This document shows positions 26,180 through 47,740 of a stretch of 64,000 nt of DNA, piece after piece. Under the pieces are notes generated by a model, which was not told where the DNA came from, ran no database searches, and saw only the letters and a program-made list of their open reading frames with translations. The first letter of the stretch is position 1. Each line of letters starts with the position of its first letter. Position numbers and translations under genes: made by a program. Origin of the DNA: Escherichia phage vB_EcoM_IME537; sequence record NC_054921.1; one strand, given 5' to 3'.

Positions 26180-26209
26180 ATAGTATCACACTACTACCCT
26201 GCTGTAAAC
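26180..26209 (-). promoter_or_regulatory. sigma70-type early promoter within an inverted repeat
   Basis: GTTTACA-N17-TACTAT; flanked by GATAGGGTA / TACCCTGC. Confidence 0.5.
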
Positions 26210-36991: not shown

Positions 36992-37465
36992 TTATTTGAA
37001 CGATTTAACGTACTGAATAGAACCTTTACTATTCACGAAAGCGATTTTACCATTTTTATTATACATGGTAGCAGTACGCTGATAACCATAAGTTTGTTTA
37101 CCAGATTGATAACCAACTAATGCGAAATTATCTTCACCCATTTTATTCTGTTTAGCGCGAATACGTTCATGTCCATGCGCCATAAGAACCTTAGCATCAC
37201 CAGTTGCAATGGATCGACGAGTTTTTTCATCTTCAACTGTATTAACAAAATCATCAAATGAATCAAATTTAGCATGAGATTTATTATACAGTTTTCCATC
37301 TACTGCATAATTATATCCCTGTACATCCATCTCAACTTCTGTACCATCATCTAATACAGCAGTAATTTTCTGTCCTTTTTTAAATTTCAAAAGATCAGTA
37401 AAAGATTCAGCAATAATTTGAGAATTAATAGCTGCTTCAGTAATAAATTCTTGATATGTTTTCAT
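36992..37465 (-). CDS. internal-protein-like gene with N-terminal capsid targeting sequence (ipII/ipIII locus)
   Basis: 157 aa; N-terminus MKTYQEFITEA matches the T4 internal-protein targeting sequence. Confidence 0.65.
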   Translation of the reverse strand: MKTYQEFITEAAINSQIIAESFTDLLKFKKGQKITAVLDDGTEVEMDVQGYNYAVDGKLYNKSHAKFDSFDDFVNTVEDEKTRRSIATGDAKVLMAHGHERIRAKQNKMGEDNFALVGYQSGKQTYGYQRTATMYNKNGKIAFVNSKGSIQYVKSFK

Positions 37466-37542: not shown

Positions 37543-38073
<531 letters not shown>

Positions 38074-41524: not shown

Positions 41525-41579
41525 AACAGTTTCCTCAAATTATAGGCTCATAATATCTCAATCATGAGCCTATGTAAAC

Positions 41580-41916: not shown

Positions 41917-42053
41917 AGTTTTGTGAAAAAAAAAAATTTTAAAAAGTTTTGGGGAATTCTAGGGCAGGGAGGGGCAATTAAAAGATAGGATAATATATTA
42001 TAAAGGGTATAAACTAAATGATGCCTAGAGAGGTCCAAAAAGGCCTAGATACC

Positions 42054-42081
42054 AAAAAGCCCCAACCTTTCGGCTGGGGCT
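42054..42081 (-). terminator. rho-independent terminator, copy A of a direct repeat
   Basis: transcript AGCCCCAGCCGAAAGGUUGGGGCU then UUUUU; 8 nt downstream of the 42089 stop. Confidence 0.6.
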
Positions 42082-42088
42082 AAGAATG

Positions 42089-42562
42089 TTATTTAATTTG
42101 TTTAGCAGACCAAATGCGGTCTTTGATAATTTTTTGGATGTCTTCAACATACTCAAGAGAGTGAGCATGCGGGTTATCTTTGAAACTATAAGCACGAGCT
42201 AACTTTTGGCCTTCAGTTTTGATTACTAAAAGCTCTTTAAGGATAGCTTCATATTTAGAAATAATTCCTTTAACAATATTTTTTTCTTGTGCAGCTTTAG
42301 GATCTGCTTTAGGAGCAGGTTTACCCGAAGCCTTTGCAAAAGCAGCGCCAGTAGCAACTAAACTTTTCCAGGCCATACTAACTGCATTTCCCGTAAATCC
42401 TTCTGCTTTCATGTCGCGAGCAAACTGGAATCGTGATTCGTCAGAAGCATCTTTATAGGAATATTTACCCGCTGCAATGGCTGCTTTTGCGACAGCTTGA
42501 ATTTCGGTGCTAGATGCTTCATTTAACACCGCTTCATTTAAAAATTGAGCATATGATTTCAT
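42089..42562 (-). CDS. internal-protein-like gene with capsid targeting sequence, lying between two terminator repeats
   Basis: 157 aa; N-terminus MKSYAQFLNEA; late promoter upstream. Confidence 0.6.
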   Translation of the reverse strand: MKSYAQFLNEAVLNEASSTEIQAVAKAAIAAGKYSYKDASDESRFQFARDMKAEGFTGNAVSMAWKSLVATGAAFAKASGKPAPKADPKAAQEKNIVKGIISKYEAILKELLVIKTEGQKLARAYSFKDNPHAHSLEYVEDIQKIIKDRIWSAKQIK

Positions 42563-42599
42563 CTTATTTCCTGTTCTAATTCGTGGATTTAATATATTA

Positions 42600-42607
42600 T
42601 ATTTATA
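42600..42607 (-). promoter_or_regulatory. late promoter TATAAATA
   Basis: TATAAATA on the minus strand about 38 nt upstream of the 42562 start. Confidence 0.5.
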
Positions 42608-42609
42608 CT

Positions 42610-42637
42610 AAAAAGCCCCAACCTTTCGGTCGGGGCT
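42610..42637 (-). terminator. rho-independent terminator, copy B of the direct repeat (end of tRNA/stable-RNA transcript)
   Basis: transcript AGCCCCGACCGAAAGGUUGGGGCU then UUUUU. Confidence 0.6.
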
Positions 42638-42640
42638 AAG

Positions 42641-42944
42641 CCTTGCGGCAACCTTGTAGGGGTTCCACCTGCTAAGGCAAGTGTTTGTACGAAACGCCGG
42701 GATTCGAACCCGGTTATTAAGTAGTTGACGCTACTCAATATTTTTAAAAGGCCATATCTCGACCATATCCGAACGTTCCGTCAAAAACGCTACTCGGCTT
42801 ACGGCAAAGATATTTCCTCGAATCGATAATTCGGTGCGCCGTTTCTGCTGTGATAGTAAAGAGCCAGAACACAGTAAAACTGTGGGAGGAAACTATACTC
42901 CAGGGAACATCAGTCCGACGACTTACCGGTAGCGACCCGGTTTC
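42641..42944 (-). ncRNA. putative stable small RNA region (T4 RNA C / RNA D equivalents)
   Basis: no convincing ORF; tRNA-like T-arm GGGTTCGAATCCC; T4 synteny downstream of tRNA-Arg; boundaries not resolved. Confidence 0.35.
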
Positions 42945-43295
42945 TTAATATTCTTTTAAAGAATCAATATATTCACGGCGTTTACGCCACAAATCAATTG
43001 CTTCATACGCGGATTCAGCATTTCGAATTAGCCGGCATTTATGTAAAGACTTATGATTTTGATATTGTGTAGATAACGGAATTGTATCTAAAAGGTCTTT
43101 ACGATCAAAATATTCGTAACCATCTAAACCAAATGAACGATTTTTGAGAAATTGCCAATGACCATATTCGTTTTCGACATAAACATAATCTGCATGCTGA
43201 TAAAGCAAATTAATTACACGTTCAGAAATAACAGTATCATTATGATTAAAATAGAATGTTAAATCATGAACTACTAAATAAACATTACCTTTCAT
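42945..43295 (-). CDS. hypothetical protein
   Basis: 116-aa ORF, ATG start. Confidence 0.45.
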   Translation of the reverse strand: MKGNVYLVVHDLTFYFNHNDTVISERVINLLYQHADYVYVENEYGHWQFLKNRSFGLDGYEYFDRKDLLDTIPLSTQYQNHKSLHKCRLIRNAESAYEAIDLWRKRREYIDSLKEY

Positions 43296-43313
43296 ATTTT
43301 CCTCACTTATAAT

Positions 43314-43389
43314 TGGTCGAGGCAGTAGGGATCGAACCTACGACCTAGGACTTAGAAGGTCCTTGCTCTTCCTTCTGAGCTATGCCCCG
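43314..43389 (-). tRNA. tRNA-Arg: tRNA-Arg (anticodon UCU), CCA encoded
   Basis: hand-folded cloverleaf; T-arm GGTTCGATCC; anticodon loop CTTCTAA. Confidence 0.8.
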
Positions 43390-43392
43390 TAA

Positions 43393-44058
43393 TTAAAATT
43401 TCATTTTTCGACCTTTAAACCATCCTTCTGGAATTGGGTCAGTTTTCTTAATACGTTTAGAAACTTTTTCATCTAATGAATGAATCCACATCATACCAAA
43501 TTGGGAATTCTTTTCTCCTTTCTGGTGATTATTTTTAGCGTGAATTTCTTTCATTTTATTAATAGTTTCAGGAGTATGATGCTTATTTAAAAATCTGCTA
43601 TTATTTAAAAATTTTTCCTTGTATTCAGGAGTTGACCACAAACGTTTAAATACATTTGAACCAATTTTACGATATTTTTCTTGAAGTAAAATATCATTTT
43701 CAAAACGTGATTTAAACGATTTAGCTCCTTTTAAGCTAGCATCTTTCTTCTGGTTTAGCATCCCAGGAATATTTATATGGTCCCATCCACCTTCACCGCC
43801 AAGTTTTAAATTATACACATCTGGTCTATTTAAAAACTCTTCTGTGACAATATTTTTCTCGGCTTCAAGCATAGATTCTTTATCATCAAAATACTCTAAT
43901 ATTTCTTTAGAGAAATTTTCTATACCATACTTGTCTTGGGCTCTTTTTAATAATTTACCAGAACCCATATATCCATCATCTAAATTTTCGGTAGAATGCA
44001 CACCAATATAAATTTTATTATTAATTTTATTTGTTATTTTATAAGTGTAATGGAACAT
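43393..44058 (-). CDS. segB: GIY-YIG homing endonuclease SegB
   Basis: 221 aa; YTYKITNKINNKIYIG...GGEGG; embedded in the tRNA cluster as in T4. Confidence 0.85.
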   Translation of the reverse strand: MFHYTYKITNKINNKIYIGVHSTENLDDGYMGSGKLLKRAQDKYGIENFSKEILEYFDDKESMLEAEKNIVTEEFLNRPDVYNLKLGGEGGWDHINIPGMLNQKKDASLKGAKSFKSRFENDILLQEKYRKIGSNVFKRLWSTPEYKEKFLNNSRFLNKHHTPETINKMKEIHAKNNHQKGEKNSQFGMMWIHSLDEKVSKRIKKTDPIPEGWFKGRKMKF

Positions 44059-44099
44059 AAATATCTCCTATTTCTAAGAGTATTTATGTTCCCAAAATA

Positions 44100-44171
44100 T
44101 GGCCCTGGGTGGAATTGAACCACCATCTGGCGATTATGAGTCGCTTGCTTGAACCTTCCAGCTACAGGGCC
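44100..44171 (-). tRNA. tRNA-Ile: tRNA-Ile (anticodon CAU; lysidine-type assumed by T4 gene order)
   Basis: cloverleaf; T-arm GGTTCAATTCC; anticodon loop CTCATAA. Confidence 0.7.
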
Positions 44172-44177
44172 TTGATA

Positions 44178-44250
44178 TGCTGATTGACGGAATCGAACCG
44201 CCGACATCCTCATTACAAGTGAGGTGCTCTACCTACTGAGCTAAATCAGC
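44178..44250 (-). tRNA. tRNA-Thr: tRNA-Thr (anticodon UGU)
   Basis: cloverleaf; T-arm GGTTCGATTCC; anticodon loop CTTGTAA. Confidence 0.8.
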
Positions 44251-44257
44251 GAAATTA

Positions 44258-44344
44258 CGGAGGCGATAGGATTTGAACCTATGAGTCGCCGGAGCGACTG
44301 CCGGTTTTCAAGACCGGTGCATTAAACCACTCTGCCACGCCTCC
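44258..44344 (-). tRNA. tRNA-Ser: tRNA-Ser (anticodon UGA), long variable arm
   Basis: 87 nt; anticodon loop CTTGAAA; T-arm GGTTCAAATCC. Confidence 0.8.
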
Positions 44345-44346
44345 AG

Positions 44347-44420
44347 TCTCCGCGGCAGGATTTGAACCTGCGACATTCTGCTCCCAAAGCAGACGCTCTA
44401 CCAAACTGAGCTACACGGAG
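44347..44420 (-). tRNA. tRNA-Pro: tRNA-Pro (anticodon UGG)
   Basis: anticodon loop TTTGGGA; T-arm GGTTCAAATCC. Confidence 0.8.
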
Positions 44421-44432
44421 TAAATTAAATTT

Positions 44433-44504
<72 letters not shown>

Positions 44505-44509
44505 AAATT

Positions 44510-44596
44510 TGGTGCGAGAAGTGGGACTCGAACCCACAAGGAAATCATTCCGCAGCATTTTAAGTGCTGTGCCTTTACCAATTTGGCCATTCTCGC
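44510..44596 (-). tRNA. tRNA-Leu: tRNA-Leu (anticodon UAA), CCA encoded
   Basis: 87 nt with long variable arm; anticodon loop CTTAAAA; T-arm GGTTCGAGTCC. Confidence 0.8.
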
Positions 44597-44597
44597 G

Positions 44598-44670
44598 CTG
44601 GGAATAAAGGACTCGAACCTTTGCATCCTGGAATCAAAATCCAGTGCCTTACCAACTTGGCTAATTCCCA
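44598..44670 (-). tRNA. tRNA-Gln: tRNA-Gln (anticodon UUG)
   Basis: anticodon loop TTTTGAT; T-arm GGTTCGAGTCC. Confidence 0.8.
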
Positions 44671-44767
44671 ATTATTAACAAAGGCTCTTAAGCAAGAACC
44701 CTTGATGATAGAGGGTATTAATCAGTGCGATATGAGTTAATAATAACAAATAATTCTTAAAGCATAT

Positions 44768-45055
44768 TTACCATTTATAATAATACATATTTACGATGCA
44801 TTCAAGACCCAAAGGATTCTTGAAAATATCATATTCAAGAGGACCTTTTTCTGTTTCAATAAAGAAATCAAAATTTACTGTATTAAATTTACGTTCTTCC
44901 TTCACTAATTTAACTTGAGAAGATGAACGGTCAATGTAAACCTTTTCAACTTCAAAACATGTTAAAATGCCATAATCATCAATCAAAGCTTTAGCCGCGT
45001 CTTGATCATATTTATATCCATTTTCAATGGATGATACTTTCGCATAAAGAATCAT
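44768..45055 (-). CDS. hypothetical protein
   Basis: 95-aa ORF. Confidence 0.45.
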   Translation of the reverse strand: MILYAKVSSIENGYKYDQDAAKALIDDYGILTCFEVEKVYIDRSSSQVKLVKEERKFNTVNFDFFIETEKGPLEYDIFKNPLGLECIVNMYYYKW

Positions 45056-45057
45056 TA

Positions 45058-45441
45058 TCAGCCTTCATCAACAATAGTGTGAGTATGGGCATTTACGATT
45101 TGCCACCAGTCAAAACTATCGCCAAATCGTTTTGATTTATTGTCTTCAATAATTTGGCGTAATTCATCTTCTGTTTCAGCATACGCAATCAAATCATCAT
45201 ATCCACCACGAGGATAATAATTATCACCTGCAAAAAGTAAAAAGTTTGGTTTAATGTTATTGAACTCTTCAAGAGTAATAACTTTTCCTGACGGTTGAAC
45301 AATCTCTACATATTTATATCCCAATTTTTGAGCAGCATCTACTGCTTCAAGCAGGGTATCATGAGCCCATCCAATTTGGCAATCTGGCTTTTCAGATGGA
45401 TTAGCCTGATAATCCGCGTACACTTTATACATTCTATTCAC
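45058..45441 (-). CDS. hypothetical protein
   Basis: 127-aa ORF. Confidence 0.5.
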   Translation of the reverse strand: MNRMYKVYADYQANPSEKPDCQIGWAHDTLLEAVDAAQKLGYKYVEIVQPSGKVITLEEFNNIKPNFLLFAGDNYYPRGGYDDLIAYAETEDELRQIIEDNKSKRFGDSFDWWQIVNAHTHTIVDEG

Positions 45442-45619
45442 CTTTAGAAATTTTATCCATAACGATAGCGATTAAACCAATTAAAAATGCTACTACAAGT
45501 GAAAAAACATTTTCTGCTGTAGTCAATAATCCGCATATAAATCCAACAAACATTGAAAAACTAAAAGCGGAAACAGAAATTGCAATAGCAACATTTCGAA
45601 TTAATTCACAACGTTTCAT
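45434..45619 (-). CDS. small membrane protein
   Basis: 61 aa; two hydrophobic helices. Confidence 0.4.
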   Translation of the reverse strand: MKRCELIRNVAIAISVSAFSFSMFVGFICGLLTTAENVFSLVVAFLIGLIAIVMDKISKGE

Positions 45620-45647
45620 TTTATTCTCCTCAGTAGTTGATAGGGTA

Positions 45648-45677
45648 ATAGTATCACTACCCTATCTAAAAGTAAAC
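45648..45677 (-). promoter_or_regulatory. sigma70-type early promoter within an inverted repeat
   Basis: GTTTACT-N17-TACTAT; flanking GATAGGGTA / TACCCTATC. Confidence 0.5.
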
Positions 45678-45911
45678 TTATTTTTTACGAAAAATTGATT
45701 TATTTTCTGCTGCCCATTTTTCAATAACTGCAGCAGGACCAGTAACAACAATTTTATCACCGTAATCTTCTGCGGCGAGTTGACCGAAATTATCTAATGC
45801 ATCACGAAGAACTCCATGAGGCATTTCACCCATTTTATCTTTCTTACCAGTGTAAATAAACTCAACTTTTACATCAGCCGCTTCATTGATAAATTCTTTG
45901 AAAGTTTTCAT
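45678..45911 (-). CDS. internal-protein-like gene (ipI locus) with capsid targeting sequence
   Basis: 77 aa from ATG 45911; N-terminus MKTFKEFINEA. Confidence 0.5.
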   Translation of the reverse strand: MKTFKEFINEAADVKVEFIYTGKKDKMGEMPHGVLRDALDNFGQLAAEDYGDKIVVTGPAAVIEKWAAENKSIFRKK

Positions 45912-45945
45912 TTTGATTTCCATTTGGTTTTGTTTTGATAGGGTA

Positions 45946-45975
45946 ATAGTATCACAACTAAAACTCCATGTAAAC
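45946..45975 (-). promoter_or_regulatory. sigma70-type early promoter within an inverted repeat
   Basis: GTTTACA-N17-TACTAT; core GATAGGGTAATAGTATCAC also found at 26171 and 45640. Confidence 0.5.
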
Positions 45976-45987
45976 AACTTTATGAAA

Positions 45988-46245
45988 TTATTTCAAATCT
46001 TCTAATCGTTTCTTCATCTTAGAACCATTTTTAGCAATTTCTCCTGCATCGGAGCATAATGCTAAAAGTGCTTTAACTTTAGTTTGGTCTCCTTTAAAAG
46101 ATGAAGGATCGACTGCAGCAGCAAGTTCTTTAATACGAGAGAAAAGACGCTCAGCTTCAGCTAAAGCCATTCCAAGCTTTACTTCCATACCGTGAGAAGA
46201 TTCAGTGATAGTAGTTTTTGTAGCAAACTCTTTGAAAGTTTTCAT
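45988..46245 (-). CDS. internal-protein-like gene (ipI locus) with a degenerate targeting sequence
   Basis: 85 aa; N-terminus MKTFKEFATKT lacks the xEA cleavage context. Confidence 0.5.
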   Translation of the reverse strand: MKTFKEFATKTTITESSHGMEVKLGMALAEAERLFSRIKELAAAVDPSSFKGDQTKVKALLALCSDAGEIAKNGSKMKKRLEDLK

Positions 46246-46275
46246 TTTATTTTCCTAATTAATTTTGATGAGGTA

Positions 46276-46305
46276 ATAATATCACTACCTCATCAGTATG
46301 TAAAC
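46276..46305 (-). promoter_or_regulatory. sigma70-type early promoter within an inverted repeat
   Basis: GTTTACA-N17-TATTAT; flanking TGATGAGGTA / TACCTCATCA. Confidence 0.5.
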
Positions 46306-46317
46306 AACTTTGTGAAA

Positions 46318-47014
<697 letters not shown>

Positions 47015-47015
<1 letters not shown>

Positions 47016-47740
47016 TATAGTACCTTTAGTGTATTTTTAATTTTAGAAAAAAGTTCTTCAAGAGAACCATCGTTTGTAATTACTAAATCACCATCACGAA
47101 TTGGCAATCCAGCTTCTGTAATATGTGTATCATTGGATTTTTGACCAGGACGAACTACATGAATTACTGTAGCACCCATCGCCCTAGCCGCATCCATTTC
47201 ATGATCTTGACGAGTATCAGGAACGATATAATAATCATAACCTGAGTTAAATTTATCAAGATAATCTAAAGCAAATAATTTTACCCAATACATGCGGTCG
47301 AAGTTATTAACAATCAAATCCGTACCTAGGGCTTGCATCAGACGACGGACTGACCATTGATCTTCAATATTATTTATAACGTCAATAATCTTGTTACATG
47401 CTACGGAATCAACTGATTCTTGTCCTTCGTCCTCAAAAACACACACCCCCTTAATTGGGCTTTTACCGTTAAGATAGCAAAATGCTTGTTCCATAATCGT
47501 GATTACTTCTGATTTAGTCAGATTTAAATTAGTCTCACGATCATAGTCAATTCCTTCAAACTCTTTACGAGTTAAGCAAGGATAGTCAGTGTTTTCTGCA
47601 AATACACCCCATGCATAAGCCAATGCATCTTTAATAGGACCAGCAAGTTGATATTTAACTGCAGAATAATTATTCATGATAAAATCTGCAGTAGTATCTT
47701 TTCCACTACGCTTTACACCACTTAAAAAGATTAGTTTCAT
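47015..47740 (-). CDS. 1: deoxynucleoside monophosphate kinase gp1
   Basis: 241 aa; P-loop GVKRSGKDT. Confidence 0.9.

Follow-up and report, generated by a model that had tools for sequence, protein, structure and literature searches.

Two distinct internal-protein genes, ip5 and ip6, and repeated early-promoter units at the ipI-type locus of Escherichia phage vB_EcoM_IME537

Escherichia phage vB_EcoM_IME537 carries two small genes at the position where phage T4 has the single gene ipI, and both encode proteins with the same first seven residues and follow an early-type promoter. This arrangement raises the question of whether the two genes are diverged copies of ipI, decaying remnants or internal-protein (IP) genes of their own, and of what the repeated promoters around them may do. 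The question is addressed here with a stretch of 64,000 nucleotides (nt) of the sequence record NC_054921.1, referred to as the window, in which the locus comparison was made over the region 45400-46800. Very probably, the locus is an ipI-type hyperplastic locus of a T6-like Tequatrovirus with the two-cassette order 57B-ip5-ip6-trna.4, whose products, by analogy with T4, would be packaged, injected and directed against host defence.

The DNA of the region 45400-46800 is 97-98% identical to that of phages Ge15, T6, GiZh and PST, and at least 80% of the region is covered in 262 phage records. The genes of the locus all lie on the minus strand and follow one another, as transcribed, in the order gene 1 (deoxynucleoside monophosphate kinase), 57A, 57B, ip5, ip6, the trna.4-like, trna.3-like and trna.2-like genes, and a tRNA cluster. 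The two open reading frames (ORFs) of the original prediction are present at the coordinates claimed, on the minus strand, which had been left unstated: ip5 (IpV) at 45988..46245 (85 amino acids, aa) and ip6 (IpVI) at 45678..45911 (77 aa; assigned to PHROG 8111 'internal virion protein'). The conserved left anchor of the locus is 57B (46318..46773, minus strand), a member of the Acb1 nuclease family directed against the cyclic-oligonucleotide-based anti-phage signaling system (CBASS), as identified by Pfam (PF23474 Acb1, 2.6e-60) and by synteny with T4, T6 and GiZh. It is noted that this gene is often labelled 'RNA ligase' or 'hypothetical' in annotations. The conserved right anchor is the trna.4-like ORF (45434..45619, minus strand), which encodes a predicted membrane protein of 61 aa (PHROG 1692, 5.8e-35; synteny with T4 trna.4). 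The position between these anchors is one of two polymorphic IP loci, and since the single gene ipI of T4 sits between 57B and trna.4, ip5 and ip6 are placed at the ipI locus.

Both proteins match internal-protein families of PHROG over their full length (1e-49 for Ip5 and 2.2e-51 for Ip6). The public GenBank/RefSeq labels are ipV/Ip5 and ipVI/Ip6, 'internal head/virion protein' (GiZh, T6 and JB75), with the ipVI/Ip6 annotation found in GiZh, JB75, VR7 and others. Ip5 is contained in 495 phage records and Ip6 in 245; the Ip5 of the window is at least 99% identical in 176 records, and identical or at least 95% identical in about 250. A Pfam scan found no significant family for either protein, and a PDB sequence search gave no match for Ip6 and a best E value not below 0.7 for Ip5. 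Searches of a large protein database with Ip5 and Ip6 yielded 5 and 10 clusters, so the resulting alignments are shallow.

The relation of the two proteins to T4 IPI is confined to their N-termini. The sequence MKTFKEF at the start of Ip5 and Ip6 equals residues 1-7 of T4 IPI and is of the MKT(Y/F)(Q/K)EF capsid-targeting type. Besides the motif TITE in Ip5 and IPI, it is the only common ground of the three proteins. At the DNA level, the ribosome-binding site (RBS) and the first seven codons form a 31-nt direct repeat on the minus strand, with 90% identity between the ip5 copy (46225..46255) and the ip6 copy (45891..45921). A BLASTP comparison with T4 IPI aligned only residues 1-26 of Ip5 and 1-14 of Ip6, and searches of PDB sequences and folds with the sequences or models of Ip5 and Ip6 returned no IPI entry. 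Because neither protein matches T4 IPI over its full length in this alignment check, which had been set beforehand, the description of the two as divergent IP-type genes is correct. The genes are distinct IPs and did not arise as copies of ipI that have diverged.

The glutamate of a short L/I-x-E motif is the residue behind which the prohead protease gp21 cleaves, and IP propeptides have 10-19 residues (PMC9026906). Such a motif closes a propeptide of this length in both proteins. The Ip6 leader, MKTFKEFINE/AADV, has the motif I8-N9-E10 of a classical 10-residue leader; cleavage by gp21 is predicted after E10, leaving a mature body of 67 aa that starts with AADVKVEF. The Ip5 leader, MKTFKEFATKTTITE/SSHG, contains I13-T14-E15, and here the predicted cut after E15 would leave a body of 70 aa starting with SSHGMEVKLG. 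The sole L/I-x-E of T4 IPI, I17-T18-E19, has the same TITE context. In an alignment of six members of the Ip5 family, I-T-E and the following SSHGMEVKLG are invariant, and in a Gaprivervirus homologue of Ip5 the SSHGMEVKLG body follows at once on a leader of 10 residues, MQTYQTF-ITE. Since the motif is invariant and the short-leader variant joins the body at this very point, ATKTT in the window Ip5 is, on this alignment, a five-residue insertion within the leader, upstream of an intact site.

The original prediction had held that the second protein, i.e. Ip5, lacks the cleavage context after its targeting sequence and that it may not be processed or may be a decaying copy. It is true that Ip5 reads ...FATKTTITES after the canonical 10-residue leader position instead of x-E-A, and that the predicted cut would leave an N-terminal serine instead of an alanine. 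However, the first part of the claim fails on the invariant I13-T14-E15 and its IPI-like context, and the second is contradicted by selection. Each gene was compared with its diverged Gaprivervirus-type homologues for the ratio of non-synonymous to synonymous substitution rates (dN/dS). For the mature part of ip5, dN is 0.08 and the synonymous sites are saturated, giving a dN/dS of about 0.03 against a homologue of 81-86% identity; for ip6 the ratio is 0.12-0.14. By this measure neither gene is decaying, and mature Ip5 is under strong purifying selection. With the motif intact and so many near-identical copies in the records, it is extremely unlikely that Ip5 enters the capsid uncleaved or that its gene is a degenerating second copy of an internal-protein gene.

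Four of the six non-synonymous differences between the ip6 genes of the window and T6 lie in the first 10 codons, a clustering that fits the exchange of a leader segment; taking T6 and GiZh together, the differences of the window Ip6 are concentrated in the first 12 codons. The leaders read MKTFKEFINE/AA in the window, MKTYQEFIAE/TA in T6 and MKTFKEFIAE/SS in GiZh. No record of the phage collection reaches 99% identity with the window Ip6 (the best is 97.4%), and the leader variant of the window has no exact match there. Two longer starts of ip6, TTG at 45977 (99 aa) and ATG at 45923 (81 aa, 'MEIKMKTF...'), were considered and rejected, since the leader must be N-terminal and GGAAA serves as the RBS. 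The logic of the leader, together with this GGAAA within the 45911..45923 extension, indicates that the true start of ip6 is the MKT codon at 45911. It should be mentioned that many database entries of Ip6 begin four codons early (MEIK-MKT..., 81 aa; cluster P0007, 68 member sequences).

Structure models of the two proteins gave no functional lead. Ip5 is modelled as a two-helix hairpin with a predicted local distance difference test (pLDDT) score of 69. The AlphaFold2 model of Ip6 is a small alpha/beta domain (pLDDT 79.5), for which the best BFVD match is the Ip6 of VR7 (TM score 0.97) and the matches outside Ip6 itself are generic. Mature Ip5 has a mass of 7.5 kDa and an isoelectric point (pI) of 9.2, and mature Ip6 has a mass of 7.4 kDa.

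We now turn to the promoters. A repeat search finds one 71-nt direct-repeat unit in three copies on the minus strand, here called units A (46263..46333), B (45933..46003) and C (45635..45705). All three carry TTTAC(A/T)-N17-TA(C/T)TAT, and a TG before the -10 element is flagged for units A and B. These two match the T4/PST early-promoter consensus TTTACW-N17-TAYWAT (PMC4122927) as well as the UP/-35/TGn/-10 form of T4 early promoters (PMC2988021). A repeat of about 70 bp with a T4 early promoter is thus found both upstream and downstream of the IP ORFs. Unit A, upstream of ip5, begins at the last codons and the stop codon of 57B, and has its -35 element TTTACA at 46304..46299 and its -10 element TATTAT at 46281..46276, with a spacer of 17. 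Perfect 10-nt arms, TGATGAGGTA at 46266-46275 and TACCTCATCA at 46286-46295 (plus strand), bracket the -10 element. The predicted fold of -17.4 kcal/mol has a z-score of -5.0 (-4.97), and none of 200 shuffled sequences is as stable. This unit is nearly identical to the one upstream of T4 ipI.

Unit B, upstream of ip6, has TTTACA at 45974..45969 and TACTAT at 45951..45946, again with a spacer of 17. It retains a single arm, GATAGGGTA (plus strand, 45937-45945), while the partner position reads AACTAAAAC, and no significant hairpin is predicted for it (-9.3 kcal/mol, z-score -1.85, with 10 of 200 shuffles as stable). In its 5' half it is similar to the corresponding half of the T4 trna.4 promoter. 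Unit C follows ip6 and precedes the trna.4-like ORF. Its -35 element (GTTTAC, 45677..45672) abuts the stop codon of ip6 (45678-45680), and its -10 element (TACTAT) is at 45653..45648. This -10 element is bracketed by arms of 9 nt that pair perfectly, GATAGGGTA at 45639-45647 and TACCCTATC at 45658-45666 (plus strand), with a fold of -16.4 kcal/mol (z-score -2.94; 0 of 200 shuffles as stable). The differences between units A and C at two paired positions are compensatory (one G-C to A-T, the other A-T to G-C).

As had been predicted, each IP ORF is preceded by a T4-early-type promoter (46304..46276 for ip5 and 45974..45946 for ip6). The placement of the -10 region inside an inverted repeat holds for ip5, with TGATGAGGTA/TACCTCATCA, but not for ip6: the pair GATAGGGTA/TACCCTATC lies downstream of the ip6 stop codon, in unit C, so the wrong repeat had been attached to ip6 and the pair belongs to the trna.4 promoter. 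The span given for the feature, 45648-46305, also needs adjustment because it cuts through unit C and ends at the -35 element of unit A; the full feature extends over approximately 45635-46333.

To see how common such repeats are, 45 distinct promoter-like units were taken from the IP loci of T4, RB15, the window and relatives from IMG/VR. Perfect arms of at least 8 bp around the -10 element are found in 11 of the 45 units (24%), compared with 0.7% of shuffled controls. There are at least four unrelated arm sequences, TGATGAGGTA, GATAGGGTA, AGGTCTATAG and AGGG(C/T)TAT, and compensatory changes are found. Most of the other units have mismatched arms; they include units that combine a C-type 5' arm with an A-type 3' arm (relatives L021 and L028), unit B and the T4 trna.4 promoter. 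Over the whole window, a strong hairpin over the -10 element is present at 4 of 16 early-promoter-like sites, two of them outside the IP locus. The sites at 41578..41550 and 26208..26180 (both minus strand) have hairpins spanning the -10 element with -18.1 and -16.2 kcal/mol, respectively, and the one at 26208 has TGATACTATTACCCTATCAAAACAAA in common with the promoter unit of ip6. The enrichment over shuffles and these sites at 41578 and 26208 indicate that the promoter-in-inverted-repeat motif is real, recurrent and not confined to IP genes.

The original prediction also proposed that the units could mediate cassette shuffling. This hypothesis goes back to Repoila et al. 1994, as restated in PMC2839356 and PMC4122927, through which that work is cited here. 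The comparison of the locus with its relatives gives it further support. In 34 relatives, found through 57B and analysed for the content between 57B and trna.4, the number of leader-type ORFs at this place varies from 0 to 5, and they are of many unrelated kinds. The gene ip6 is found alone (L036), after ip5 (the window, L005 and T6), or as the last of four or five (L017, L019 and L020). Breakpoints, defined as the points where co-linear BLASTN homology of the locus ends, were determined against T4, L036, L035 and RB15. Homology with T4 extends from 57B past unit A to about codon 12 (46211) and starts again at 45657, which is within the -10 core of unit C. With RB15 it continues across ip5 and unit B, ends in the leader of ip6 (45876) and starts again at 45660. 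The breaks against L035 are at 46225, directly after MKTFKEF, and at 45677, in the -35 element of unit C. In L036, a 113-nt segment matches both unit A with its leader (46333..46225) and unit B with its leader (46003..45891), and this locus looks like a deletion of ip5 by a crossover of unit A with unit B. In the T4 trna.4 promoter, the 5' half aligns with unit B and the 3' half with unit C.

The breakpoints against T4, RB15 and the metagenomic relatives thus fall inside a unit of about 110 nt, and this supports the view that repeated promoter units mark the borders of exchanged cassettes. Each cassette would consist of a strong T4-early-type promoter, an RBS, the MKTFKEF leader and an unrelated body. 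The unit preceding each gene, made up of the end of the upstream gene, the -35 element, the -10 element in its inverted repeat, the RBS and the leader codons, would offer the homology by which cassettes are inserted, deleted and replaced. In 228 records, the second IP locus, next to lysozyme e, holds a paralogue of Ip5 with 48% identity, which shows movement between the two IP loci. In phage EcNP1 (L042:1501-1782), this paralogue has 93 aa and the leader MKTYSEFLSE/SILNE/A, and it follows immediately after lysozyme e.

What the inverted repeat contributes is a separate matter. It may be mainly an RNA or transcription element and not a recombination device, either as a 3' hairpin that stabilizes or weakly terminates read-through transcripts of the upstream gene or as the operator of a dimeric regulator; this is quite possible, though short of probable. 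Shuffling would then make use of whatever homology is at hand. The hairpin would form in read-through RNA right after the upstream stop codon, and the arms vary among units with their pairing kept, which indicates selection on structure. Comparable hairpin promoters exist outside the IP locus, as described above, and the promoter-early stem-loops (PeSLs) of other T4-like phages have been read as promoter-terminator composites (PMC4122927). Against this reading stand the lack of a U-tract after the hairpin and a terminator scan that detected no terminator at the locus. Moreover, a transcript from the unit's own promoter would begin within the 3' arm and hence would not contain the hairpin, and about three quarters of the IP-locus units, the ip6 promoter included, have lost the pairing yet stay conserved. 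Many of the breakpoints fall in leader codons and not in the inverted repeat.

For the function of the proteins, we start from the T4 pathway, which is established: the leader takes the precursor into the scaffolding core, gp21 cleaves it, and the product sits in the head and enters the host together with the DNA (PMC9026906). A T4 head holds about 360 copies each of IPI and IPII and about 370 of IPIII (PMC9026906). By the same steps, the leader would direct the Ip5 and Ip6 precursors into the prohead scaffolding core, gp21 would cut Ip5 before S16 and Ip6 before A11, and the mature proteins of about 7.5 kDa would be packaged and enter the host with the DNA. There they would probably neutralize a host defence acting on incoming DNA, by analogy with Ip1, Ip2 and Ip3, each of which inhibits a different GmrSD type IV enzyme of a very diverse family (PMC12373910). 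The identification of 57B as an Acb1 anti-CBASS nuclease places the IP locus in a counter-defence neighbourhood.

Several points weigh against this picture and should be set beside it. Packaging, cleavage and injection of Ip5 and Ip6 are inferred from T4, and the probable anti-defence role is likewise an analogy. Additional L/I-x-E matches in Ip5, LAE at 28-30 and IKE at 38-40 inside predicted helix 1, make its cleavage pattern less than certain. With a pI of 6.8, mature Ip6 is close to neutral, whereas the classical IPs are described as 'basic'. Neither ip5 nor ip6 has a late-promoter motif TATAAATA immediately upstream; the closest copy on their strand lies within gene 1 (47378..47371), so supply of the proteins at prohead assembly would need read-through or persistent activity of the early promoters. 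The repeat breakpoints fit homologous recombination; an active part of the inverted repeat itself is not proved by them. In the published GmrSD panel, ip4-10 gave no reproducible inhibition (PMC12373910, Supplementary Fig. 9). Both genes are present in T6, and at least Ip5 is encoded by T2. Both phages are restricted by the GmrSD enzymes of ECOR21 and ECOR17 (PMC12373910) and by the UTI89 enzyme (PMC4437046), and T2 also by the CT596 GmrSD (PMC4437046). A literature search found no match for Ip5 together with GmrSD.

These restriction data bear on the idea that Ip5 and/or Ip6 are functional analogues of IPI*, i.e. injected inhibitors of some GmrSD subtype that attacks DNA containing glucosylated hydroxymethylcytosine. 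The two genes occupy the T4 ipI position, their products have a size like that of IPI* (7.4-7.5 versus 8.0 kDa), and all three T4 IPs with identified targets inhibit variants of the very diverse GmrSD family (PMC12373910). Nevertheless we consider the idea unlikely, given the negative panel with the GmrSD clusters that were active in it, the restriction of T2 and T6 in spite of their Ip5 and, in T6, Ip6, and the lack of any sequence or fold similarity to IPI past the leader. It is very unlikely, on the other hand, that Ip5 and Ip6 have no counter-defence role and are dispensable fillers of the core or of the packed DNA, comparable to IPIII in head morphogenesis. The basic pI of mature Ip5, the head-assembly aberrations of T4 IP-null mutants (PMC9026906) and the fact that a target of Ip5 and Ip6 is not known would agree with such fillers. 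A generic filler would not explain the many unrelated folds, Ip6 is not basic, and the IP locus adjoins the anti-CBASS gene; a gene content that varies greatly among close relatives, with bodies under purifying selection, is the typical pattern of arms-race accessory genes. The preferred reading remains that of packaged proteins probably directed against host defence. A combined conjecture, possible but doubtful, may be added to it: Ip5 and/or Ip6 would be injected inhibitors of a defence other than GmrSD, and the invariant -10 core (GTGATAYTAT) between the two arms may be a preferred crossover point, promoters with mismatched arms, such as those of ip6 and T4 trna.4, being scars of exchange. 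A non-GmrSD target would account for the negative published panel. Since Ip5 and Ip6 are among the commonest IPs of therapeutic T-even phages, naming their targets would bear on the prediction of host range.

Other leader-type genes and features of the window are described here for completeness. At the second IP locus, the ORF 36992..37465 (minus strand, 157 aa, MKTYQEFITE/AA) lies directly downstream of lysozyme e (37543..38037) and matches the internal virion protein family PHROG 3155 (6e-102); it is the only strict leader-bearing ORF in the window besides ip5 and ip6. Another ORF of 157 aa, 42089..42562 (minus strand), begins with MKSYAQFLNE/AVLNE/ASSTE, a leader-like N-terminus with two L-N-E protease motifs. 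The late-promoter motif TATAAATA is found at 42607..42600 (minus strand), 38 nt upstream of its ATG. Its family is PHROG 2280, 'unknown function', and it is a 'hypothetical protein' in 510 phage records; from its sequence features, it may be an unrecognized internal protein outside both classical IP loci. An Rfam scan of 42000-47000 found eight tRNAs only. They form the cluster 43314..44670, which is split by an ORF for a segB-like GIY-YIG homing endonuclease (43393..44058, minus strand, 221 aa) between tRNA-Arg and the other seven (Met, Thr, Ser, Pro, Gly, Leu and Gln), as in T4 and T6. GiZh is without the segB-like ORF and has more tRNAs.

The locus can finally be compared with known systems. 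The genes ip5 and ip6 of T6-type phages and their flanking promoter repeats are already described; Repoila et al. 1994, as cited in PMC2839356 and PMC4122927, first reported them together with the leader and the promoter/inverted-repeat units of about 70 bp. The discovery value of the present analysis is accordingly small, with genes, leader, units and the shuffling idea in print since 1994 and annotations in hundreds of GenBank records. Its useful yield lies in the corrections, namely the intact gp21 site and strong constraint in Ip5 and the assignment of the second inverted repeat to the trna.4 promoter. Compared with the described T6-type ip5/ip6 locus, Ip5 is identical and Ip6 is 93-97% identical, with the same flanks (57B and trna.4), order and promoter units; the differences are small changes only, among them those in the Ip6 leader.

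T4 IPI/IPI* shares with ip5 and ip6 the genomic slot, the near-identical upstream promoter with its inverted repeat, MKTFKEF and a similar mature size, and with Ip5 only, the TITE cleavage context. In contrast, the mature bodies are unrelated in sequence, and GmrSD enzymes, among them the one that IPI* blocks, restrict phages that bear Ip5 and Ip6. With T4 Ip2 and Ip3, whose locus is beside e, Ip5 and Ip6 would by analogy share the class of leader-bearing injected proteins, and a paralogue of Ip5 occupies that locus, whereas GmrSD targets have been identified for Ip2 and Ip3 and not for Ip5 and Ip6. A further parallel is offered by PeSLs, the mobile promoter-early stem-loop cassettes of RB49/phi1, PST/T4 and nt-1/KVP40 (Arbiol 2010, PMC2839356; Comeau 2014, PMC4122927). 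The strict definition of a PeSL, a near-consensus sigma-70 promoter with an adjacent G/C-rich terminator stem-loop, does not apply at this locus, where the terminator scan is empty: the stems of the window are AT-rich and bracket the -10 element, whereas the PeSL stem adjoins the promoter as a G/C-rich terminator. The T-even elements, with T4-type early promoters and AT-rich stems without polyG/polyC, have been regarded as analogues and not homologues of PeSLs (PMC2839356). What the two have in common is the presence of repeated early-promoter and stem-loop units that flank small variable ORFs at insertion/deletion borders in hyperplastic regions, and the breakpoints seen by sequence comparison are compatible with PeSL-like mini-circle excision between flanking units.

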